DNA of 64,000 nucleotides from Acidobacteriota bacterium (GCA_009691245.1 SHUM01000003.1:3099-67098); one strand, 5' to 3'; positions 2,890 to 39,513 are shown, numbered from the stretch's first letter. Notes: generated by a model from the sequence alone, not told the origin. Numbers and translations: made by a program.

Positions 2890-5142
2890 CTAGGGCGCGA
2901 CCGGGATGGTAATGTTTTGCGTGGGGTTGCTGGGCACTCCATTCTGCCGAAGCAGCAGCGGGACGGCATTGCCGGTTTGGATTTCTCTAGGAACCAATAC
3001 GTTTATTTGATAGAGTCCGACAAAGGTCGGAGCGAGACCATCGTACAGGACCTGGGCATCAATGCCGCCAATGCTGACAGAGACTGGTACCGTGATATCG
3101 CTTCCTGTTTGCAGCGCGTCGCCGGAACCGACCGGCGGGATCGTGTCGCCCAGCCCGCCCGCGAAGATCTGAATGATTCGACCCAAACGCGCCGGGTTTG
3201 CCACAGTGACCCGGCGGAACTGATTATCCAGTACCGCGGCGCCGTTTGAATCGACGAATATGCCGGGTTGAGCCGCAGCGATCTGGTAATTCTGCGGAGT
3301 GGTCAGGCGTCCTCCAGCATTGACGACGATGGATACGGTGTCGCCAGGCCGCGACTCGAAAGGTACCTGTGCATTGATCTGGCCTTCGCTGACGAAATAT
3401 AGCGGTGCCGGGACGCCGCCGATGAGCACCGAGGTTTGAGAAAGCTCCGTCTCCAGTGGTATGGTCGAGGCGGCTGCCGTTGTGGGTGCCAGGGCTGATC
3501 CGAACAAGGAAACAATCCCTCCGGGCACCAGTGGACGGCGTTGTGCGAATCCCGCGCCTTCCACCACGCCGTCGTTGAACAACACGGGCAGGACGGTCCC
3601 GCCGGAAGCGGTTATGGACGACACCGCAAATATCTGCTGCACGGAACTGAAGTTCGGGTGGAAGCCGGCAAACGTGATGTTCACGGTTGCAGCGGCTTGT
3701 TGCGGAGTCCAAGTGCCGTTGTAGAAACCGCCTCCGGCATTCGACATTGGAATGGAAACGCCCCCGGCGGTGGCTACCACGGTCCCATTTGTTACGGGAT
3801 CCCCGCAACTATCCACCAATTGCGCCAGGAGCGCCTGCGGGAAGGAAACAGGGGAGTTTGAGCCGTTGCCTACAGTGCTGCCGATGAGGGACATCCTGAT
3901 AGGCGTGCATCCTGCAAGGGACGCGCCGCCGGTTTGCTCGTCGGTCACGGATGACCCACGAAGGCAGTATGTGGAATTGGGATTGCACGGTGGTTGCGGC
4001 TCGTAACCGGTGGGGTCCAATTCGGTAATGATCAACGCGACGTCAACCGTCTGAGGAGATCTACCCGGGAAGCTCGCGGTAATCGTGCCGCGATAAGTGC
4101 CCGCCCGCAATCCGGTCGGGTTCACAGTTACCTGGATGGTGGTCGGCGCAGCGCTGGTGGCAACAACGCTGGTTGGCAATACGTTGACCCAATTTCCGGT
4201 GGTGGTGGTGGTGGTGAACTGCGTAGTGATCGATCCACCTCCCGTGTTGCTGAGGGAGATCGATTTCTGCAAATTGTTGGTGCTGCCCACGGGAGCCGTG
4301 AACGTCATGCCGTAATTGGTGATTCGGGGAACCGCTCCAGCCGTGGGACGCACCACATGGTAGGTTACCGAAAGATATTGCGGGGAGTTTCTGGCCGTGG
4401 ATGAACGGAAAGGGATCAGTGCCGAATAAACACCGTTGTCAAGCGCAGCGGTATTAAGGGCCACGGTAATCTCCGTGCCCGATGTATTGCTGGCAGACAA
4501 TGAGCCACTGCGGGGCGTGATATTCAGCCATGCGGGTATCGAAGCCGCATTCACCGTCCAATCGAGCGTTCCCGTGCCTGAATTGAAAATGGAAATGGGA
4601 TGCCCTGGCGGAATTCCCGTGCGCTCGACGGTCTGAAACACGATGGAAGACCAACTCAACGATAGGCGGGGGCTGGGGGCCGCCAGCGAGGCATTGACCG
4701 GGATGGAAAGTATCCCAACAACGGATGGAATGCGTATGTTCACAAATCCTTGATAGGTGCCAACTCCGGGAAGCAAAGCAGGCGTGAATGTGACGCGAAG
4801 GAAATTGCGCTGCCCTTGCTGGAATGTCCCCGTGGATGGAGTAACTCTGAGCCAGTTATTGCCGCCATTCAAGTATGCAATGGTTGCCGTAAAGGGTTCG
4901 GGAACATCAATGCTACAGCCTGTAACCGAGCTGTTCCCTATGAATAGCGAGTGCGTACTCGGTGCGTCGCCGATGCGGGCGGTCAGTTGGAACGAATTGG
5001 GCTGGGCGCAATTAGGAAGAGAATTTAAGTCAATGGCGTGTAGGTCGGCGCGCCATCCTGGAAGCACAAGCGCCATCAAACAGAGGGCAAGGGAAATCGC
5101 CACTGCCGCATGTCTGTGATCATTCACACGAGTTTTCTTCAA
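2890..5142 (-). CDS. Secreted Ser/Thr/Gly-rich protein with Solibacter-type C-terminal domain (TIGR03437-like)
   Basis: Signal peptide (MKKTRVNDHRHAAVAISLALCLMALVL). Long low-complexity beta-rich body. C-terminus ...FVGLYQINVLVPREIQTGNAVPLLLRQNGVPSNPTQNITIPVAP is typical of the uncharacterised Solibacter usitatus C-terminal domain family. Confidence 0.6.
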   Translation of the reverse strand: MKKTRVNDHRHAAVAISLALCLMALVLPGWRADLHAIDLNSLPNCAQPNSFQLTARIGDAPSTHSLFIGNSSVTGCSIDVPEPFTATIAYLNGGNNWLRVTPSTGTFQQGQRNFLRVTFTPALLPGVGTYQGFVNIRIPSVVGILSIPVNASLAAPSPRLSLSWSSIVFQTVERTGIPPGHPISIFNSGTGTLDWTVNAASIPAWLNITPRSGSLSASNTSGTEITVALNTAALDNGVYSALIPFRSSTARNSPQYLSVTYHVVRPTAGAVPRITNYGMTFTAPVGSTNNLQKSISLSNTGGGSITTQFTTTTTTGNWVNVLPTSVVATSAAPTTIQVTVNPTGLRAGTYRGTITASFPGRSPQTVDVALIITELDPTGYEPQPPCNPNSTYCLRGSSVTDEQTGGASLAGCTPIRMSLIGSTVGNGSNSPVSFPQALLAQLVDSCGDPVTNGTVVATAGGVSIPMSNAGGGFYNGTWTPQQAAATVNITFAGFHPNFSSVQQIFAVSSITASGGTVLPVLFNDGVVEGAGFAQRRPLVPGGIVSLFGSALAPTTAAASTIPLETELSQTSVLIGGVPAPLYFVSEGQINAQVPFESRPGDTVSIVVNAGGRLTTPQNYQIAAAQPGIFVDSNGAAVLDNQFRRVTVANPARLGRIIQIFAGGLGDTIPPVGSGDALQTGSDITVPVSVSIGGIDAQVLYDGLAPTFVGLYQINVLVPREIQTGNAVPLLLRQNGVPSNPTQNITIPVAP

Positions 5143-5393
5143 CGGTTACTCCTCTGCTGGCGTTTCAGAGCAAAGTTGCCTGACTCCGATTCATTTTCAG
5201 GCAATCTCTTTCCGATCCCTAGTCGCCATGTATAGCAAACGACCTAATTGTAGCGGGACGCCGGGGAGGGCCGTACGTGGCTCTACTCTAAGCAAAGTAT
5301 CGCGATATCTAGTGTGCGTGTCAATGGGATTGTGGGCCATTTGTTCAGGATGTAGCCCTAGTAAGTATAGGACTAAATCGAGCCACATTGCTG

Positions 5394-6539
5394 TCAATGG
5401 GAGGAGTCATTAGTTCTTTGCTGGGGGTTCAAGCTGTAACGGGTCCGGGCTTTTTCGCGGTGCCGCTTGATGGCCAGCTCCACCAGTCGATCGATTAGCT
5501 TAGAGCAGGATAGCCCGCTCGCCGCCCACAGTTGCGGATACATGCTGATTCTGGTGAATCCAGGTATGGTATTGATTTCATTTACATAGAACTTGCCTGT
5601 CTTTTTCTCGAGGAAGAAGTCTACGCGCGCCATGCCCGCACAATCCAAGGCCTGGAAAGCCTCCACAGCCAGTTTTTGCGCCCGCTCCGCCTGCGCAGGT
5701 TTCAGTGGTGCCGGAATCAGCAATTGCGAGTTGTCATCGAGATACTTTGCGGCATAGTCGTAGAACTCATTGCCAGGAACAATTTCGCCAGGCACGGATG
5801 AGATGGGATCTTCATTGCCTAGCACGGAGCATTCGATCTCTCTTGCGTTCATGCCGCGCTCCACCAGAACCTTCAGATCGAAATCGCCGGCCAGCCGTAG
5901 CGCCGGTACCAACTCGTCGCGATTGCTTGCTTTGCTCACACCCACCGACGAGCCCATATTAGCGGGCTTCACGAATACCGGATAACGAAACTCCGCCTCA
6001 ATTTCTTTGCAGAGATCATCCAGACGGACATGGATATCGCGCCGATTCGTTACCACATAGGGAACCACCGGCAACTTGGCCTGTTGGAATAGGCGCTTCA
6101 TGACAACCTTGTCCATCCCCACCGCCGAGCCGAGCACTCCCGAGCCCACGTAAGGAATCTCCGCCAGCTCCAGCAATCCCTGCACCGTGCCATCCTCGCC
6201 GTATGTACCATGCAGGACCGGGAAGACCACGTCGAGGGCACCGGGAAACGTTGTTGCGTTCTGGCTGGCAAGTGGCACCAGAAGTCCTATGCCATCCGGA
6301 CAGGCCGATGGAATTACTTCCACGGCGCCCACGGGTATGGAATCAATCGCCCCATGTCCATTGGGTTCCGGCGGCAACGCGCCCACGCACCAGCGCCCTT
6401 GCTTGGTGATGGCGATGGGGACGACATCGTATTTTTCCGGGTCCGCTGCGGCAATGATGTTCCGCGCCGACTGAATCGATATCTCGTGTTCAGCCGAGCG
6501 GCCGCCGAAGAGGATGCCCAATCTTTTTTTGTTGGCCAT
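5394..6539 (-). CDS. ddl: D-alanine--D-alanine ligase
   Basis: MANKKRLGILFGGRSAEHEISIQSA N-terminus and ATP-grasp architecture; standard Ddl length (381 aa). Confidence 0.9.
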   Translation of the reverse strand: MANKKRLGILFGGRSAEHEISIQSARNIIAAADPEKYDVVPIAITKQGRWCVGALPPEPNGHGAIDSIPVGAVEVIPSACPDGIGLLVPLASQNATTFPGALDVVFPVLHGTYGEDGTVQGLLELAEIPYVGSGVLGSAVGMDKVVMKRLFQQAKLPVVPYVVTNRRDIHVRLDDLCKEIEAEFRYPVFVKPANMGSSVGVSKASNRDELVPALRLAGDFDLKVLVERGMNAREIECSVLGNEDPISSVPGEIVPGNEFYDYAAKYLDDNSQLLIPAPLKPAQAERAQKLAVEAFQALDCAGMARVDFFLEKKTGKFYVNEINTIPGFTRISMYPQLWAASGLSCSKLIDRLVELAIKRHREKARTRYSLNPQQRTNDSSH

Positions 6540-6812
6540 GCTATTTTGAGTGCGTCAATGGTGGATAGGAACTAAGCGTTGCTAACGAACCCCTGCCGCA
6601 GTCTCCCATTATCCACGAGTTATTTTCCTTCGTCCAAACCCGACGGTGCCTGCCCTTCAATGCTGCCACGGTGATCGCCGCGCCCGCAGGCTTTCCAGTG
6701 CGTACAGGTCTATTGACAGTAGCTTATATGGTTCGCTAGTCTAGCCTTTACTTCCCAGACTTGGCTGCACAGGCAGGCCTGCAAGATATCCCGGAACGCA
6801 GAGGCAGTCACC

Positions 6813-26953: not shown

Positions 26954-31535
<4,582 letters not shown>

Positions 31536-31543
<8 letters not shown>

Positions 31544-32987
31544 GGTAACTGGATTTATCGAGTACGACCGCGAGAAATTCAAATATCGGCCAGTCGAGGA
31601 GCGCCTCCACGACTACCGCGAAGTGACGCTGCCCGCCGAAGATGCCAAGCTTAAGAAGCAGGCCGCGCGCTGCATGGACTGCGGCATTCCCTTCTGCCAC
31701 ATGGGCTGTCCGCTGGGCAATCTGATCCCAGATTGGAACGACCTGGTCTATCGCGACCGTTGGTCGGAGGCGATCACGCGGCTGCACTCGACGAATAATT
31801 TCCCCGAGTTCACGGGACGCCTCTGCCCCGCGCCGTGCGAAGGCTCCTGCGTGCTGGGCATCAACAATCAGCCGGTTACGATCAAGCAGGTGGAAGTCTC
31901 CATCATCGAGCGTGCCTTCGAGAGTGGCTTCGTCAAGCCGTTCACGCCCACCGTGCGCACGGGCAAGAAGGTCGCTGTGGTGGGCTCCGGCCCGGCGGGG
32001 TTGGCGACGGCGGACCAGCTCAACAAGGCCGGCCATCTGGTAACCGTCTTCGAGCGCGCCGACCGCGTCGGCGGCTTGATGCGTTATGGCATCCCTGAAT
32101 TCAAGATGGAGAAAAACGTCCTGAACCGGCGGCTCGCGCTGATGGAGCAGGCTGGAGTTATCTTCCGCACCAGCGCCAACATCGGCGTGAATGTTCCGGT
32201 TAAGGAATTGCAGAAGGACTTTGACGCCATCGTGCTGGCCGGCGGCGCCACCGCTCCGCGCGACCTGCCCATTCCCGGACGCGAGCTCAAGGGCATCTAT
32301 TACGCGATGGACTTTCTGCCCTTGCAGAATAAGAAGTGCGAAGGCGACACCATTCCCGACGCTCAGTTCATCTCCGCCGAGGGCAAGCGCGTGGTGATCA
32401 TCGGCGGCGGCGACACTGGCGCGGACTGCCTGGGCACGGTGCATCGACAGGGATGTAAGTCCGTCCACCAACTCGAACTGCTGCCTAAGCCTCCCGACGC
32501 GCGTGATGTGCTCAACAACCCCTGGCCGCTGTGGCCGAACATCTTCCGCACCTCCTCGGCGCATGACGAGGGCGGCATTCGCGAGTATTCCATTTCGACC
32601 AAGAACTTTTCCGGCGTTGATGGCGTGGTGAAGAAGCTGCACACCGTGCAGGTGAAGATGGCTCCCGACGCGCAGGGCCGCCTCGGCTTTGTCGACATTC
32701 CCGGCACCGAGATGGAGATCGAAGCCGATCTGGTGCTGCTGGCCATGGGCTTCCTCGGCCCCGAGAAGAAAGGCATGCTCGATCAGTTCGGCGTAAAGCT
32801 CACCGAGCGCGGCAACGTGGCGCGCGACGCCAACTGGATGACCAACGTCCCTGGCGTATTCACCGCCGGCGACATGCAGCGCGGCCAATCGCTGATCGTC
32901 TGGGCCATCGCCGAAGGCCGCTCCGCCGCCCGCGGCGTGGATACCTTCCTCATGGGCCGCTCTGATTTACCCGCGCCTCTTGCCTAG
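31536..32987 (+). CDS. gltD: Glutamate synthase small (NADPH) subunit
   Basis: [30 protein letters not shown], Fe-S cysteines, FAD/NAD Rossmann GSGPAGLA. Overlaps gltB by 8 nt. Confidence 0.95.
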
Positions 32988-33020: not shown

Positions 33021-33539
33021 TTGCATGGGATGGAAATGACGAACCCGTACGCAACGCAGTTGGGAGACAGCGATCCGCTGCACGTAGTGGCGACCACGCC
33101 CCAGCGTCTCGAACAACTCTCAGCATTGCTTGGCGAGGACGGGATGCAGCAATCAGTCGCTCCCGGCAAGTGGACGGCGCGGGAAATCTTGTGCCACCTG
33201 GCAGATTGCGAAGTGGCCTTTGCCTTTCGGCTCCGACAGACTCTGGCGGAGAATTTCCACGTCATGCAGCCGTTCGATCAGGACAGATGGGCGAGCGCTT
33301 ACGCAGCATATGAAGCTCCGGAAGCGCTCTCCGTCTTTTCCGCATTGCGGTAGTGGAACTTCCGGCTGATCCGTTCGCTGAGCCCGGCGGCCTTCGCGAA
33401 ACCCGTGAACCATCCCGAGCGCGGCGACATGACCTTCCAAGCGATCGTCGAAACGATGGCCGGCCACGATATCAATCACCTCCGCCAGCTACAGCTAATC
33501 GCCGGCAGGAAATCGGATCGACAGCAATCCTCCTCCTAG
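33021..33539 (+). pseudogene. DinB_2/DinB-YfiT-like metal-dependent protein interrupted by one in-frame TAG (33351-33353)
   Basis: The same frame continues after the TAG: ...SVFSALR*WNFRLIRSLSPAAFAKPVNHPERGDMTFQAIVETMAGHDINHLRQLQLIAG. Combined length ~170 aa fits the family. Conserved H residues lie on both sides of the stop. Confidence 0.55.
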
Positions 33540-33643
33540 TGTTTCGGCGCATTAATCGCTCGTAGCTTCAGCGATCTATCCCCAGGCACCCCCGCCGGGC
33601 GTGGAGATGCGCAGGATGGTGATCTTCTGTGCGATGAAGGCGG

Positions 33644-33856
33644 CTACAAGAAAATCTTCCGCATCTGGCTGAGTACCGCGTCCATCTTGGCGAGGCTCAG
33701 CGCGGCGATTGCAGCCAGGATCAAATCCTCGGTGAGTTGATTGGCAGAATCGGGTGAAATAACGAGGGCAGGCCTGTTTTTGGTTGCGGTAAGGTCGGTG
33801 AAGGGAAAGGAAACCAGGACAATGTCGTCGCGCCTATAGCTTGTCGTAGACGGCAT
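33644..33856 (-). CDS. PemK/MazF-like toxin, apparently truncated (70 aa)
   Basis: N-terminus RRDDIVLVSFPFTDLTATKNRPALVIS matches the PemK family core (GDIvlvdFPfsd...KkRPalVls). The C-terminal half diverges. Confidence 0.45.
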   Translation of the reverse strand: MPSTTSYRRDDIVLVSFPFTDLTATKNRPALVISPDSANQLTEDLILAAIAALSLAKMDAVLSQMRKIFL

Positions 33857-34034
33857 CTTCTTCGTTATTCCAGAACTGGAAGCTCTTTTCCGTTGCCTTC
33901 AGCCAGCCGGAATGCTTTGTTAGGCTTAACAGTTCTTCTTCGGAAAAGATACGATGCTTCTTCCCGGGAGCTGCGTCGGCGACTTTCTCCAGCGGCCGAA
34001 AGATTCCGTCGATATATTCCGCTCTAACGCTCAT
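33834..34034 (-). CDS. Small antitoxin-like protein (DUF104-like N-terminus), overlapping the toxin start by 23 nt
   Basis: MSVRAEYIDGIFRPLEKV... resembles DUF104 antitoxins (IEAiYEnGvlkPLEpl). C-terminus WNNEEDAVYDKL is a common antitoxin tail. Typical TA gene overlap. Confidence 0.45.
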   Translation of the reverse strand: MSVRAEYIDGIFRPLEKVADAAPGKKHRIFSEEELLSLTKHSGWLKATEKSFQFWNNEEDAVYDKL

Positions 34035-34106
34035 GCCTGCGACCTCTTCGATAGTTCTATCACCACAGACGGGGAAATCTAGATATAGGGGTGTGCCACC
34101 GGTTGC

Positions 34107-34571
34107 TTAGCGCGCGGGCTGGCTGGCGGCGCGGAACTCGCGCATGAAGTCTTCCACGCTCATGACGTAGACGGGCGGGAAGTTGGCTTGCGGGCGGGCC
34201 TCGGTGATCATGTTGATGGCCTGCTTGCGCTCGTAGCCCAGCGCCCGCATGATGGCCAGCACCATGAGCGGGCTGCGGTGAACGCCCGCCGCGCAATGCA
34301 CGTAAATCTTCGCGTTGGGATTTTCCAGCGCGAGCAAAGTAAAATCCACCACGGTCCAGAAGAGCGACGATGGCTTGGGAAGAAAATCGTCCGTAGTCCC
34401 GTTCTGGAGCACAACGATACCGGTGCCGTCGTTGATGGTGTGATCGTCAAACTCGTGCATCATGTTGATCACGTGCGTGAAGCCAGCCTCGGCCAGTTCG
34501 CGCATGTTCTCCACGTTGCGGATGAATCCGCCGACCGCGAGTTCTTCCGTTACAAACTGATAGTCGACCAT
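34107..34571 (-). CDS. Dual-specificity (Tyr/Ser/Thr) protein phosphatase
   Basis: CX5R P-loop VHCAAGVHRSPLMVLAIM; 154 aa. Confidence 0.75.
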   Translation of the reverse strand: MVDYQFVTEELAVGGFIRNVENMRELAEAGFTHVINMMHEFDDHTINDGTGIVVLQNGTTDDFLPKPSSLFWTVVDFTLLALENPNAKIYVHCAAGVHRSPLMVLAIMRALGYERKQAINMITEARPQANFPPVYVMSVEDFMREFRAASQPAR

Positions 34572-34795
34572 TGCTCGCTGCTCCCGCGGAGCGAATCATC
34601 GCTTTCCCGAACTTGGACCCCAGCGCCGCCAATCAGCGCTGACGGCCCTACATTGATAATCGGCCAAACACGACCCATTGTGAAAATAATTATGATTCAA
34701 CAGGGCGTCGCAGGCACACGAAGTTACTGGTTCGGCACCCGCCTCTAGTACCATCCTCGGCGGTGCAGGTGAGTTGTTGAAACTCTGGAAAGTAT

Positions 34796-35371
34796 TTAGC
34801 GGCGTGATTTCTTCGCTCTGCCTGGGGGCTTCCTGGCCGGCGATTTCCTGCGAGCGGGGGCCTTTTTCCTTGCGGCTTTGCCACGTTTAGCCGCCACCGG
34901 CTTCACGGCTTTCTTGCGCACCGGTGATTTTGCGCGAACTACCCGCGCGGTCTTTTTGCGCACCGGTTTGGCGGCCCGTTTGGCAATTGGTCTAGCGGGT
35001 GCTTTGGCCATCTTCCTGGCCGTTGGTTTCTTGCGGACCAGCGCTTTTTTCGGACTCGGCTTCGTTGCCGCGGTCTTCTTCGGCTTGCCTGCGGATTTCT
35101 TCGAGGCTGGGGCAGCTGAGGAAGCTGCTTTTTTGCGAGGGGTGGCTGGCGCTGCGGTGGCTTCAATCACCGTCGCTAGTGCTGGCGACAGGCTGGTCTC
35201 GGTGATGATGATCCCCTCGACGACCATCCCTTCATCAGCGGAATCATCATCGTCTTCCTCGAAGCCGGAGGCGAACTCATCGAGTTCCTTGTCAAACTCG
35301 CCCGACATTTCATCGAGCTCATCAAACATGTCCTCATCATTCATTCCGAAGTTCATTTCATCCGCGCTCAT
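34796..35371 (-). CDS. Histone H1-like protein: acidic N-terminal domain fused to a Lys/Ala/Pro-rich basic tail
   Basis: N-terminus MSADEMNFGMNDEDMFDELDEMSGEFDKELDEFASGFEEDDDDSADEG. C-terminal ~110 aa is KKAA/PKK repeats (AAKPVRKKTARVVRAKSPVRKKAVKPVAAKRGKAARKK...), like Hc1/AlgP-type bacterial histone-like proteins. Confidence 0.6.
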   Translation of the reverse strand: MSADEMNFGMNDEDMFDELDEMSGEFDKELDEFASGFEEDDDDSADEGMVVEGIIITETSLSPALATVIEATAAPATPRKKAASSAAPASKKSAGKPKKTAATKPSPKKALVRKKPTARKMAKAPARPIAKRAAKPVRKKTARVVRAKSPVRKKAVKPVAAKRGKAARKKAPARRKSPARKPPGRAKKSRR

Positions 35372-35634
35372 GGTTCCCCCTGATTGGCCCGCCGATTCGC
35401 TCTGGGACTTGGATGTTGCTGTCCGCTGGCAAAAGCTCTCAAAAATTGGGTTTTATCTCAGACCGTGGATGGTGTCAAGTCGAATCCATATGGCGAACCC
35501 CAGGGTTGAATCCCTAAGCCACCCTCCGAGGATGATTGCCAGCAGAACGGACAGGCCAATCTTTCCAGGTGCAAATTCCTGTTGTCCCCAATAGCAAAGC
35601 TCGATAGAGTACCGTCAGACTCAGTTTTGGAGGC

Positions 35635-36480
35635 GTGCGTCGCACACGGATGGCTTTGCGGGCGGTGGAACATCTTCGACGCATGCGTGGTGGGGCGCAA
35701 TCGCATCTGATGCGTTGCAGCGATGAGCAATATTACGTGGTCAAGTTCCGCAACAATCCGCAAGGCCCGCGCATCCTGGCCAATGAGATGCTGGCCAGCC
35801 ATCTGGCCATGTCGCTGGGCTTGCCCGTCTCGGAGCCGGACATTGTGTTGGTCAGCGAATGGCTGATTGCGCACACGCCGGACCTGTACATTCAAAACGG
35901 CAGCATCCAGGAACGCTGCCAGAGTGGATTTGCCTTTGCCTCCCGGTTTCCCTGCGATCCCTTGCGCTCTCCAGCCTTCGACTACCTTCCCGCTGAGCAG
36001 ATGCCGCTGGTGGCCAACCTGGATGCGTTTGCCGGCATGCTGGTGTTCGATCAATGGACCTGCAACTGCGACACGCGCCAAGTAGTCTTCCACCAGACAA
36101 ACTCGCAGGCCAATGAAGCCGCACCAGCGTTTCACGCGACGATGATCGATCAGGGCTACTGCTTCAACGGTAATCAATGGAACTTCCCCGACTCGCCGCG
36201 CCGCGGCCTGTTTCCCAACGTGGCTGCCTACGCTGGAATCAGTGGATCGTCGGCGATTGAACCATGGCTGAGCCGCTTGCGGAATTTTCCCGATGACTTT
36301 TTGGACGAGGCGGCCGCCACCGTTCCGGTGGAGTGGTACGAGGGCCAGACCGATGAGTTGAGCCGTCTGATGACCACCTTGGCCGAACGCCGCGGGCAAA
36401 TTCGGAATTTGATGGAGGAATGCATGCGCGCGGCGCAAGGCTCATTTCCGAACTGGCCGTCGCATCCTGCGAAGGCCTGA
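35635..36480 (+). CDS. HipA-like (HipA_C superfamily) putative Ser/Thr protein kinase, stand-alone
   Basis: ...AGMLVFDQWTCNCDTRQVVF... aligns with the HipA catalytic loop (vFNvLIGNtDDHaKNfs). Upstream RILANEMLASHLAMSLGLPVSE resembles the HipA core (NEhltmrLA...GI.vpe). The overlapping minus-strand ORF 35458..36438 looks like antisense noise. Confidence 0.45.
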   Translation: MRRTRMALRAVEHLRRMRGGAQSHLMRCSDEQYYVVKFRNNPQGPRILANEMLASHLAMSLGLPVSEPDIVLVSEWLIAHTPDLYIQNGSIQERCQSGFAFASRFPCDPLRSPAFDYLPAEQMPLVANLDAFAGMLVFDQWTCNCDTRQVVFHQTNSQANEAAPAFHATMIDQGYCFNGNQWNFPDSPRRGLFPNVAAYAGISGSSAIEPWLSRLRNFPDDFLDEAAATVPVEWYEGQTDELSRLMTTLAERRGQIRNLMEECMRAAQGSFPNWPSHPAKA

Positions 36481-36637
36481 CTCCAGCGCAGGGGTTCTCC
36501 TGAGCCAAGGGAGATGACGAGATGCAGGCGGACCGTTCGGGACATCCCCTGCCGTCCATGCCGTATGGTCCGCTGCGCTACAATGGAAAGCGCAGCCGGA
36601 GCGGTGCGATCCTGTTTATTCCGACGGCTGACTTACC

Positions 36638-37534
36638 ATGAACCTTGATGCTGTCCGCCGAATGATCGAATCTCTGCCTCCGCTGACTCCGTTGGCGGTG
36701 GGCGAACTTTTTATTCTCGCCGCGCTCATCTACGGGGCGTTACAGTTCATCCGGCAGGCGGTGGCGGCGCAGTTCCTGGTTTGGATGGCCCTGCTCGGCG
36801 TCGCCTACTTCGGCGGGAGATGGGCCGGGCTCACGGTGGCCCCCGAGCTGATCGGAACGCTGTTCCCTTATCTCAGCTTTGCGCTGATCGTGTTGTTCCA
36901 AGCGGAGATTCGCCGCGGCCTGTCGCGCTTGAGCCGCAATCCATTCGGCTCTCGCCGCATGTCGCCGTTTGAGGCGAGGCATCTGTTTGAGGACATCCTA
37001 ATGGCAGTCAATCGCCTGGCCGCGCAGAAGATCGGTGCGTTGATTGTGGTCGAGCGCGAAACCTCGCTGCGCAACTACGCCGAAAGCGGTGTCCCGTTGC
37101 AGGCCCGGCTGACGCAGGATCTGCTGGCGACCATCTTTCAGCCGCGCGCGCCACTGCATGACGGCGCGGTGATCATTCGCCGGGACCGCGTGCTGGCCGC
37201 CGCCTGTTTTCTGCCGCTGACGGTGAACCCGGCGCTGGGTTCTCGACTGGATCTGCAATTGGGCACGCGCCATCGCGCGGCGATTGGCATCACCGAGGAG
37301 ACCGACGCGATGGCCATCGTCATCTCCGAGCAGACCGGCTTCATCTCGCTGGCCATGCGCGGCGCCATCGAAATGGACATCACGCTCGAGGTGCTTGGCC
37401 AGCGGCTGATGGAGGCCTTCGGCCAGCCTGCCAACCCCGCCATCTCTGCCGCGCTATCTTCGGCGGCGCGGACAGCGACTGCGACGCTGGTGCCGGAGCC
37501 GAGCGCACGAGAAAACGCCCGGCATTCTGAGTAA
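36638..37534 (+). CDS. cdaA: Diadenylate cyclase (c-di-AMP synthase), membrane-anchored CdaA type
   Basis: N-terminal TM helices, then a DAC domain with DGA (PLHDGAVIIRRD) and GTRHRAAIGITEETDAMAIVISEQTG motifs. Confidence 0.85.
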   Translation: MNLDAVRRMIESLPPLTPLAVGELFILAALIYGALQFIRQAVAAQFLVWMALLGVAYFGGRWAGLTVAPELIGTLFPYLSFALIVLFQAEIRRGLSRLSRNPFGSRRMSPFEARHLFEDILMAVNRLAAQKIGALIVVERETSLRNYAESGVPLQARLTQDLLATIFQPRAPLHDGAVIIRRDRVLAAACFLPLTVNPALGSRLDLQLGTRHRAAIGITEETDAMAIVISEQTGFISLAMRGAIEMDITLEVLGQRLMEAFGQPANPAISAALSSAARTATATLVPEPSARENARHSE

Positions 37535-37575
37535 TTGGCAGAGTAAAGAGCTGCGTGGATAGCCGCGCGGGAGTG

Positions 37576-37983
37576 ATGATGGACTGGCTCAAGACAATTC
37601 TGACGAAGAACCTGCCCTTGAAGGCGTTGGCACTGTCGCTGGCCTTCGCTGTCTGGGCCATGCTGGCAAGCAACACCACGACAGAGATTTTGATGAATGT
37701 GCCAATCGAGTTTCGCAATGTGCCGGCCGGAATGATTTTGTCCGCCGATCCGACGGAGGTTCAGTTGCTATTGCGCGGGCCGCGCCCGATCCTGCGCCGC
37801 ACTCGTCCCGAAGAAATTCACCTGCAACTGGATTTGGCCTTAAGCTCCTCGGGAAATCAGCAGGTCATGGCGCTATCTCCCCAGTCGGTGGAGGTCCCTG
37901 CGGCGATCGAAGTGCTGCAAGTCCGTCCCGCCGAGACCAGAATTTCCTTGACCGCTGCGGAGGCGGCTGTGCCGTCCAGGTGA
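37576..37983 (+). CDS. CdaR/YbbR-like protein (short, single TM + one YbbR-like domain)
   Basis: TM segment LPLKALALSLAFAVWAMLA then a YbbR-like beta domain. Sits between cdaA and glmM as in the Firmicute cdaA-cdaR-glmM operon. GGGAG RBS before ATGATG. Confidence 0.55.
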   Translation: MMDWLKTILTKNLPLKALALSLAFAVWAMLASNTTTEILMNVPIEFRNVPAGMILSADPTEVQLLLRGPRPILRRTRPEEIHLQLDLALSSSGNQQVMALSPQSVEVPAAIEVLQVRPAETRISLTAAEAAVPSR

Positions 37984-38118
37984 ATTCACGCAGGTGTGGG
38001 GTTCCGGAATCTAGCCAGGTTTCGGTGAGTAGAGAGTAAAGCAACAAGAGTGAAGTAACAGCCGCGCCCCGAATTCCGCCGTCAGCAGAGCTGTGGAGAG
38101 GAAAAACAAGCAGACCCG

Positions 38119-39513
38119 ATGGAGAAAACGCTATTTGGAACGGATGGAATTCGCGGCGTTGCGGGCGACTTGCCGCTGGACCCGACCACGATTGCTTGCG
38201 TAGGGCGCTGCCTAGGGCGGCACTTAAAGAAGAAGCAGGGGCAGGACTGCCGCGTGCTAATCGGACAAGACACGCGGGAGTCCGGCTCGTGGATCGTCGC
38301 CACCCTGTCCGCCGCGCTCGGTGAGGTGGGCGTAGCGGTCGCCTCGCCGGGCATTGTGCCCACTCCGGGCCTCGCGTATCTGGCGGTGGCTGGGAAGTAT
38401 TCCGCGGCGGTCATGGTCTCGGCTTCACACAATCCATTTCAGGACAACGGTATTAAGATTTTCGGCAGCGATGGGTATAAGCTGCCCGACGCAGTTGAGC
38501 TGGCGCTCGAGGCGGAGATTCACGGTGAACTCAAGGGTATCCGGCGCGTTCCCGTAGAGCCAACTTTGGCGATACTGCCAACGGATCGTACTCTGCTTCA
38601 GCCCTACCTCAATCATCTTCTGGAGATTGCCCGTAGCGTGAAACCGCTGCCGGGTCGTCGCGCCGTCATCGACTGTGCCAACGGTGCTGCCACGGCGCTG
38701 GCCCGCGAAGTGTTCTCCGCGATCCCCTATGAGTGGGTTTATATCGGCGACCGTCCCGATGGGCGCAACATTAACCTCGGCTGCGGCTCGATGCACCTTG
38801 AGCTGCTGCGCAGTTGCGTTAAACAAGCGCATGCGGATTTTGGCGTGGCCTTCGACGGCGATGCGGATCGCGCCCTGTTCGTGGACGGCGGTGGCCACGT
38901 GGTGAACGGCGACGGCGTTCTGATCGCTGCCGCCCGTTACATGCAGCGCACCGGCACGCTGCGCGGCAGCGCCGTCATCGGCACGGTGATGACCAACCTG
39001 GGCCTGGAGCGCGCTCTGGAGAAAGAGGGCCTGGCGCTGCGGCGCACGGCGGTCGGCGATAAATATGTTCTCGAGGAGATGACCCGCTGCGGCGCCAACC
39101 TGGGCGGCGAGCAATCCGGCCACATCATCTTCAGCGACAACGCCACGACCGGCGATGGCCTGCTCACAGCGCTCGAGATGGTTACCATCATGGCGGCGGA
39201 GAATCGGCCTCTGGCCGACCTGGTAAAAGACCTGCACGTCTATCCGCAAAAGATCCGCAACATGGCCGTGCGTGAGCGCATACCGCTCGAGATGCTGGTG
39301 GGCTTCCAGAAGCAGCTTCGCGCCAGCGAGGAGCATCTCGGCGCGGGGGGCCGCATCGTGGTGCGCTACTCCGGCACCGAGCTGCTGCTGCGCATCATGG
39401 TGGAGGCCGAGACCGTCGAATTGGTGGACGAGCACATTGCCGCGTTGGAACAGGCCTTGGCGGGTTCTCTCAAAGCGGCGCCCAATGCAGGCAAACACCG
39501 CGCCCATGCTTGA
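38119..39513 (+). CDS. glmM: Phosphoglucosamine mutase
   Basis: MEKTLFGTDGIRGVAG..., active-site Ser loop SASHNP, and sugar-binding loops. Confidence 0.92.
   Translation: MEKTLFGTDGIRGVAGDLPLDPTTIACVGRCLGRHLKKKQGQDCRVLIGQDTRESGSWIVATLSAALGEVGVAVASPGIVPTPGLAYLAVAGKYSAAVMVSASHNPFQDNGIKIFGSDGYKLPDAVELALEAEIHGELKGIRRVPVEPTLAILPTDRTLLQPYLNHLLEIARSVKPLPGRRAVIDCANGAATALAREVFSAIPYEWVYIGDRPDGRNINLGCGSMHLELLRSCVKQAHADFGVAFDGDADRALFVDGGGHVVNGDGVLIAAARYMQRTGTLRGSAVIGTVMTNLGLERALEKEGLALRRTAVGDKYVLEEMTRCGANLGGEQSGHIIFSDNATTGDGLLTALEMVTIMAAENRPLADLVKDLHVYPQKIRNMAVRERIPLEMLVGFQKQLRASEEHLGAGGRIVVRYSGTELLLRIMVEAETVELVDEHIAALEQALAGSLKAAPNAGKHRAHA

Follow-up and report, generated by a model that had tools for sequence, protein, structure and literature searches.

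A HipA_2-family kinase beside a dual-specificity phosphatase and an acidic/basic charge-block protein in Acidobacteriota, a candidate phosphatase-antagonised toxin system

HipA-type kinases serve as models for toxins of persistence and anti-phage defence, and to our knowledge all of those described so far are restrained by binding proteins, namely HipB, HipS, or DUF3037. The pair of a HipA_2 kinase and a DUF3037 protein corresponds to the PADLOC candidate PDC-M66 and is a toxin/antitoxin-like anti-phage system (DS-6 or "HipAD"), on which experiments were published in 2025-26 (PMC12548924, PMC13092281). With a pair located adjacent to Retron-Sda1, deletion of DUF3037 was toxic and deletion of the kinase abolished phage defence (PMC12548924), and with DS-6, which was renamed HipAD, a catalytic mutant of the kinase gave no defence (PMC13092281). 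A precedent of another kind is KKP, in which the phosphatase PfpC is the enzymatic antitoxin to toxic Ser/Thr kinases, and MvaU, a nucleoid protein, is one of their targets (PMC11341870). Here we describe a locus from an Acidobacteriota bacterium, contained in a stretch of 64,000 nucleotides (GCA_009691245.1, SHUM01000003.1:3099-67098; in the following "the window", with positions counted from its first letter). Its centre is a HipA_2-family atypical Ser/Thr-type kinase (35635-36480, plus strand), a family relative of the pairs tested in the cited studies, which are only distant members with respect to it. The DUF3037 gene is missing, and two other genes adjoin, one for an acidic/basic charge-block protein (AB; 34796-35371, minus strand, 191 aa) and one for an atypical Cys-based dual-specificity phosphatase (DSP; 34107-34571, minus strand, 154 aa).

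Arguing by analogy, we tentatively propose that the core of this locus may be a variant of the HipA_2 toxin system in which a phosphatase antagonises the kinase, following a KKP-like logic. All five open reading frames (ORFs) of the region 33644-36480 were re-located and are present. For comparison, a survey was made of about 190 related loci; they all belong to Acidobacteriota and are designated by L-numbers. The kinase-centred loci were 80 from GTDB species-representative genomes and nine from metagenome assemblies, and they were scored with custom profiles; the main kinase-centred set (n = 84) consisted of the window, L001-L003, and the 80 GTDB loci. A DSP-centred set of 80 loci was obtained by a metagenome scan with the DSP profile, and 40 of these were informative, having enough flanking sequence. 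Substitution rates were compared with L004 from Candidatus Sulfopaludibacter sp. SbA3, the kinase of which is 95% identical to that of the window.

The kinase, which contains MLVFDQWTCNCDTRQ, matched Pfam HipA_2 (PF20613; E 4e-14, 52.9 bits at a cut-off of 27, profile positions 5-219 of 240) and PADLOC PDC-M66A (E 1.5e-12, profile positions 15-260 of 270). The classical HipA_C domain (PF07804) appeared only below its cut-off (E 0.016, 15.3 versus 30.5 bits, residues 20-73), and no Pfam match to the HipA N-terminal domain was found in the kinase. Judged by its profile matches, the protein is a HipA_2 protein and not a classical HipA. By homology, translation likely starts at the ATG at 35650, which gives a protein of 276 aa. 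There are 3,963 homologues, and one protein from an Acidobacteria metagenome-assembled genome (MAG) is 100% identical. The ATP-binding lysine K32, the catalytic loop D134-x-W-x-x-N139-x-x-x-R143, and the metal-binding D167-x-G169 are all recognisable, with K32, D134, N139, R143, D167, and G169 invariant across 64 aligned kinases including that of the window. The same frame (35650-36480, plus strand) also matched the PHROG family phrog_3162, whose function is unassigned, at E 1e-16, and related kinases are therefore catalogued in phage genomes.

No PDB relative was found with a sequence profile built on the kinase, so folds had to be compared. The AlphaFold2 (AF2) model had a predicted local distance difference test score of 93.4 and a predicted TM-score of 0.91, and Foldseek matched it to Fam20C, PI4KIIalpha, CtkA, CotH, and HipA in the PDB with E-values of 1e-6 to 1e-3 and TM-scores of about 0.5; the predicted fold is kinase-like. 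The invariant catalytic residues and this fold are in agreement with an earlier interpretation of the same DNA without database searches (the sequence-only reading), which had named a HipA-like kinase here. The ratio of nonsynonymous to synonymous substitution rates (dN/dS) in comparison to L004 was 0.135, which means purifying selection. This value and the intact catalytic residues rule out a decaying orphan gene. An overlapping minus-strand ORF (35458-36438), which the sequence-only reading had considered as possibly the true gene, is likewise excluded, because it is the kinase frame that has about 4,000 homologues and the low dN/dS.

In 77 of the 84 main-set loci, DUF3037 is encoded directly 3' of the kinase, and at 45-61% kinase identity the relatives continue with this DUF3037/PDC-M66B gene. 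The kinase had been described as stand-alone with neither HipB nor HipS, and indeed neither is there, nor does any helix-turn-helix (HTH) gene adjoin the kinase, whose neighbours are AB, DSP, and cdaA. However, the absence of HipB and HipS is beside the point, because the expected partner is DUF3037, and it is this family partner that was lost in the lineage. A DUF3037 profile built from 77 relatives found nothing at E<=10 in the 64-kb window. DUF3037 is missing from six of the 83 kinase-centred loci that reach far enough (L028 could not be scored, as its contig ends just past the kinase), and a DSP gene adjoins the kinase in five of these six. The five belong to two separate clades: the window, L004, and L001 form the window's closest clade, and L012 and L027 represent, together with L121, a second loss in a separate lineage with a DSP-kinase operon. 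The sixth locus, L079, has neither DUF3037 nor DSP.

The position of the DUF3037 gene in the relatives corresponds in the window to the spacer between kinase and cdaA (36481-36637), a gap of only 158 bp. Kinase and DAC gene follow each other without an intervening gene in the window, L004, and L001, and relatives at 53-58% identity (L003, L005, L006, L184, L186, L187) show the order kinase-DUF3037-cdaA-glmM. As these relatives carry DUF3037 in the same context, the lineage of the window lost it by deletion. A hidden small partner ORF in the spacer was ruled out, as the 44-aa ORF located there is not conserved. Alignment of the spacers (window 36470-36640, L004 8805-8990) revealed a conserved -10-like element, GCTACAAT / CGCTGCGCTACAATGG, and the CGCTGCGCTACAATGG element is likely the -10 region of cdaA. 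The spacer of L004 contains a 22-nt tandem insertion of CCTGAGCCAAG repeats.

DSP matched Pfam DSPc (PF00782) at E 4e-13 with 49.7 bits (cut-off 33.5) and has the CX5R motif HCAAGVHRS, so that a CX5R dual-specificity phosphatase next to the AB gene stands as first described. The P-loop residues H92, C93, A95, G96, H98, and R99 are invariant in 11 homologues, as are D61 and D62 ("DDF") of the general-acid Asp loop, a region that is spanned by the alignment with VHR/DUSP3. In the PDB, the family profile found VHR/DUSP3, DUSP26, PTPMT1, and PRL with E-values between 1e-11 and 1e-10. The catalytic residues of DSP are intact, and with a dN/dS of 0.12 the protein is under purifying selection.

The composition of AB confirmed the acidic head and basic tail reported before: 22 of residues 1-50 are Asp or Glu, and the last 114 residues comprise 41% Lys/Arg and 78% Lys/Arg/Ala/Pro with no Asp or Glu. 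The acidic N-terminal part of 77 aa has a net charge of -24 and the Lys/Ala/Pro-rich, histone-H1-like tail of 114 aa one of +47, with the label "histone-H1-like" referring to compositional resemblance only. The gene contains low-complexity sequence and no exact DNA repeats. AB had no match in Pfam, PHROG, or PADLOC, one far-sub-threshold NCBIfam match to the low-complexity tail (E 0.013, 14.9 bits at a cut-off of 426), and nothing at E<=0.001 in a database of 5.8 billion proteins. As low complexity defeats homology searches, we identified homologues by composition, architecture, and position. In these homologues, an acidic N-terminal block with a median charge of about -22 is followed by a short hydrophobic patch, then by a Pro/Ala linker, and finally by a Lys-rich tail with a median of about +27. 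A single-sequence AF2 model of AB shows disorder except for a helix at residues 12-35. Relative to L004, dN/dS is 0.36 for the whole protein, with 0.15 for the N-terminal part, of which the first 38 residues are identical in both, and 0.49 for the tail; AB, too, is under purifying selection. In L003, the AB gene (4990-5846, minus strand) is split, with the acidic part and the Lys/Ala-rich part in different frames and a repetitive stretch in the tail, which results either from a frameshift or from an error in the long-read assembly. Most likely, AB would be a polyanion-binding cofactor or regulator of the module, with DNA, RNA, or polyphosphate as putative ligands, and not its conserved phospho-substrate; such a role as cofactor, regulator, or sensor is our guess.

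The sequence-only reading had suggested that these genes belong together, and kinase, AB, and DSP indeed occur together in many genomes and in several gene orders. An AB-type ORF adjoins the kinase in 34 of the 35 informative loci of clade I, one of the two major kinase clades, in three gene orders. AB is divergent from the kinase in the window-type clade, and it lies on the same strand directly 5' of the kinase (AB-kinase-DUF3037) in about 27 Terriglobia loci from other groups, such as Acidiferrales and Terriglobales. DSP homologues, called at phmmer E-values below 1e-39, were present in 14 of the 84 kinase-centred loci and kinase-adjacent in 11. The window arrangement, with DSP and AB on the minus strand and the kinase on the plus strand, recurs in L001, L002/L086, L003, L004, L005, L084, L184/L185, and L187; the flanks of L002 otherwise differ despite this order. 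DSP is found directly 5' of the kinase on the same strand in L012, L027, L074, L083, and L029, at a spacing of 4 bp in L012 and L027 and also in L121, and about 5 kb away from the kinase in L042, L066, and L071. In L029, AB, DSP, kinase, and DUF3037 form one same-strand row. Starting from DSP, a kinase was nearby in 15 of the 80 loci, or 15 of the 40 informative ones. In the DSP tree, the window-type clade is kinase-linked in all eight of its informative loci, and a second clade is mostly linked. The proposed link of the phosphatase to the kinase has therefore held insofar as DSP recurs beside the kinase, but it is not obligate, as 25 of the 40 informative DSP loci have no kinase nearby.

Some of the unlinked DSP loci show features of their own. 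In L133 (3667-6465) and L091 (3517-6354), DSP lies 3' of a divergent gene for an S24-peptidase/HTH (LexA-like) protein and of a gene with sigma-70 region 4, and just 5' of these two, L091 also has genes of AB type and MltD-like type. In L162, DSP is followed by a 98-aa ORF (6392-6688) in which the GGAQSHL loop from the N-terminus and the PFPQW end from the C-terminus are all that is left of the kinase. This ORF is an internally deleted kinase remnant and illustrates one route to solitary DSP genes.

We picture the history of the locus as follows. An ancestral cluster of the class Terriglobia would have had the order AB-DSP-kinase-DUF3037, an order that L029 still has. A single inversion of the AB-DSP segment may have led to the window-type order, with DSP and AB on the minus strand and divergent from the kinase, and DUF3037 would then have been deleted in the window's own lineage. 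In the parent HipA_2-DUF3037 system, the kinase is a growth-arresting toxin and DUF3037 its restraint. DSP would now oppose the kinase by stripping phosphates from the kinase targets, from the kinase itself, or from both, and AB, with its acidic, helix-containing head and H1-like polycationic tail, would bind polyanions. We infer this opposing activity of DSP because the kinase is catalytically intact and under purifying selection without DUF3037, and because both independent losses of DUF3037 lie where DSP adjoins (window/L004/L001 and L012/L027/L121). The window kinase may be toxic, and the locus may be linked to phage defence or persistence. An extended version, in which DSP-restrained HipA_2 toxin kinase and AB, as a nucleic-acid- or polyphosphate-bound sensor or scaffold, would make up a three-part module that is an ancient, vertically kept component of Acidobacteriota chromosomes, is doubtful.

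The proposal of a phosphatase-antagonised toxin has to be weighed against observations that do not favour it. Most DSP-linked loci retain DUF3037, so the phosphatase is normally an addition and not a replacement, and the loss of DUF3037 amounts to two independent events only. The fold of the kinase is as near to PI4KIIalpha and Fam20C as to HipA, and atypical dual-specificity phosphatases can have lipid or glycan substrates. About 40 DSPs form a clade without linkage to the kinase and lie behind S24-peptidase/HTH and sigma-70 region 4 genes. All loci come from one phylum, and no kinase was present within 2-6 kb in the 25 kinase-free informative DSP loci. AB and DSP occur close together without a kinase in L091 and L099; conversely, L183 and L186, members of the window-type clade with kinases that are 56-61% identical, have kinase and DUF3037 without DSP or AB.

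The last of these observations also speak for inherited synteny as the only cause of the pattern. According to this explanation, AB, DSP, and the kinase pair are independent ancestral neighbours in Terriglobia that have not yet been separated; the kinase would be an orphan toxin or defence gene or would have been repurposed, and the roles of DSP and AB would be unrelated. The 25 informative DSP loci without a nearby kinase make this a serious rival, and with all evidence drawn from a single phylum, part of the pattern is explained by inherited synteny. In addition, MltD-like and E2 acyltransferase genes are likewise conserved neighbours in the region. However, the adjacency persists through at least three gene orders or strand arrangements while other neighbours change, and the 4-bp spacing of DSP and kinase in L012, L027, and L121 indicates units of co-translation. 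Moreover, both losses of DUF3037 occurred in DSP-adjacent loci, and purifying selection holds the kinase although its antitoxin is gone. As the full explanation, synteny seems less probable to us than the phosphatase-antagonised toxin.

A switch of nucleoid remodelling would assign the central role to AB: phosphorylation by the kinase would lower the DNA binding of AB as an H1-like nucleoid protein, and the phosphatase would restore it. Parallels are the phosphorylation of H1 tails by cyclin-dependent kinases and of mycobacterial HupB by Ser/Thr kinases. The AB gene lies between the genes of kinase and phosphatase, and AB of the window has TPRK, SPKK, SPVR, and SPAR motifs and 12 Ser/Thr residues in its tail as well as three S-x-D/E sites in its acidic head; KKP kinases, too, phosphorylate a nucleoid protein, MvaU (PMC11341870). 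Many kinase-adjacent AB homologues, however, lack Ser/Thr in their acidic half and have 0-3 such residues in the tail, with none in the acidic half of L011, L057, L063, L073, and L044 and none in the tail of L029, L035, and L068, and the sole conserved aromatic position varies between Y, F, W, and L. As many homologues are almost without Ser/Thr, AB is unlikely to be a conserved phospho-substrate, and the corresponding suggestion of the sequence-only reading found no support. The phosphatase, moreover, is absent from most AB-kinase loci, and the DNA binding of AB is only putative. We regard such a switch as unlikely.

DSP could also act in the opposite direction, as an activator that removes an inhibitory autophosphate and thereby re-arms the kinase. 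Inactivation by autophosphorylation is established for HipA and HipT, and such a role would suit the observation that DSP usually accompanies DUF3037 rather than replacing it. Against this, the equivalent of HipA Ser150 is not a serine in this kinase family, a by-eye alignment of the GGAQ loop giving Met, and if DSP only activated the kinase, the loss of DUF3037 with retention of DSP would leave the toxin unrestrained. An activating DSP seems quite unlikely to us. Least probable of all, the substrate of kinase and phosphatase would not be a protein but, for instance, a lipid head group or a glycan. In favour of this, NCBI names the kinase "phosphatidylinositol kinase", PI4KIIalpha has the top query TM-score (0.57) among the Foldseek matches listed, and PTPMT1, laforin, and the glucan phosphatases SEX4 and LSF2 are further matches of the DSP profile. 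Against it, Pfam and PADLOC group the kinase with HipA-like toxin kinases, relatives of which act as toxins neutralised by a protein partner, and the best matches of DSP are the protein phosphatases VHR and DUSP26.

The sequence-only reading had included a PemK-like toxin with a DUF104-like antitoxin in a possible module. The association of kinase, AB, and DSP has held, but this pair is degraded and absent from the relatives. The PemK-like ORF (33644-33856, minus strand, 70 aa) matches only positions 1-43 of 109 of the Pfam PemK_toxin profile and retains a short C-terminal piece, and in comparison to MazF-like proteins of the PDB only its N-terminal 42 residues align. As only profile positions 1-43 are matched, it is a MazF/PemK remnant with an internal deletion. 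The putative antitoxin, an AF2212-like (DUF104) ORF (33834-34034, minus strand, 66 aa), matched profile positions 5-51 of 59 below the cut-off (E 0.0098, 16.7 versus 21.6 bits). No homologue of either ORF was found in 83 related loci. A DinB_2-family ORF in the adjoining sequence (33021-33539, plus strand) is interrupted by an in-frame TAG at 33351-33353; an HxxxH-type C-terminal motif is still encoded 3' of the TAG, the ORF is absent from L004, and it is either a pseudogene or reflects a sequencing error. In L004 (6132-6480), gltD and DSP are only about 350 bp apart, so the block 33021-34034 with DinB, MazF remnant, and AF2212-like ORF, which is absent there, is lineage-specific, resulting from either a recent insertion in the window or a deletion in L004. 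We therefore exclude the MazF/AF2212 pair, which is degraded and missing from related loci including L004, from the kinase module and regard it as an unrelated, decaying insertion.

The wider surroundings are housekeeping genes. Upstream lie the glutamate synthase genes gltB (26954-31543) and gltD (31536-32987), and downstream follow cdaA for the c-di-AMP synthase (36638-37534; Pfam DAC, E 4e-41), a ybbR-like ORF (37555-37983), which is named by its position and has a counterpart in L187 that matches Pfam YbbR, and a glmM-like gene (38119-39513), which is named from the phosphoglucomutase domains of its counterparts. Throughout the window-type clade, whether or not DUF3037 accompanies it, the kinase is always directly 5' of cdaA, followed by the ybbR-like ORF in most loci and by glmM, after which acylphosphatase and phosphoribosyltransferase genes are usually found (window 36481-39513, L001, L003, L004, L005, L006, L184, L186, L187). 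The arrangement kinase-cdaA-glmM is kept even where the upstream genes differ. In the divergent region between AB and kinase (35372-35634), alignment with L004 and L001 showed a conserved patch (35446-35478) with the block TTGGGTT.TA.C.CAG...TGTCAAG. Operator-like inverted repeats were sought in this region and not found, and promoter and terminator scans performed no better than with shuffled sequence.

A very different setting was seen in the other major kinase clade, with MAGs mostly labelled Acidobacteriaceae. Here, kinase and DUF3037 lie on the same strand, with the gene for the large subunit of a terminase (phrog_2, E 1e-25) on one side and a phage portal gene (PF04860, E 1e-45) on the other, after which come scaffold-like and capsid-like genes. 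The order terminase-kinase-DUF3037-portal is identical in 39 species-level genomes (within L008-L081, for example L008 9635-10915 and L042 6322-7869) and is also found in 18 of 19 IMG/VR viral contigs (L164-L182). This points to a widely conserved prophage-like or gene-transfer-agent-like element with a toxin pair in its head module. The HipA_2-DUF3037 pair is widespread in soil and peat Acidobacteriota, where it is found in a stable housekeeping locus and, in marked contrast, within the head-gene module of a prophage-like element. AB represents an unannotated family without homologues detectable by sequence search, and its steady place beside the kinase makes it a concrete candidate for what such kinases sense or act through.

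How does the locus compare with described systems? In the literature that we searched, there was nothing specific on HipA-family kinases with phosphatases or on AB-like proteins in Acidobacteria, with KKP as the only analogy. The HipA_2-DUF3037 pair itself is known; we did not find in this literature the association of DSP and AB with it, nor a lineage that keeps both without DUF3037. PDC-M66/DS-6 shares the kinase family (PF20613, PDC-M66A) with the window. Unlike this system, the window has no DUF3037 within its 64 kb and instead has DSP and the charge-block protein, neither of which is mentioned in the two papers (PMC12548924, PMC13092281) or matched by any PADLOC model. It also differs in that its locus is in a stable housekeeping context (gltBD ... 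cdaA-ybbR-glmM) and not in a defence island. The likeness to HipBA and HipBST is confined to a distantly related kinase fold and a Gly-rich GGAQ loop that resembles the AGAQ loop of HipA, whereas the window kinase of about 275 aa has no HipA N-terminal domain, HipB and HipS are missing, and gene order and partners are different. The AB tail resembles AlgP, Hc1/Hc2, the tails of HupB/HupS, and PhaF in being Lys/Ala/Pro-rich, of low complexity, and polycationic with SPKK-type motifs, but homology of these proteins to AB is not detectable. We know of none among them that has a built-in polyacidic N-terminal block (about -22) or is tied to a HipA-type kinase.

The closest functional likeness that we propose is to KKP (PfkA/PfkB with PfpC), known from Pf and other prophages, in which a toxic kinase is opposed by a co-encoded phosphatase and a nucleoid-associated protein is involved (PMC11341870). 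The protein families are different: KKP combines Hanks-type kinases (PF00069) that have CSD/FHA domains with a PP2C phosphatase (PF13672), whereas the window combines a HipA_2 kinase with a Cys-based DSP, and Pkinase, PP2C, CSD, and FHA domains gave no Pfam match at the locus. KKP furthermore has two kinases and the window one, and the nucleoid-like protein of the window is encoded inside the cluster. The likeness is therefore an analogy between unrelated protein families and not membership in the same system. If the analogy holds, the locus would be a second, independently evolved case of a kinase toxin with a phosphatase antitoxin after KKP, and a natural system in which the effect of a toxin is enzymatically reversible.

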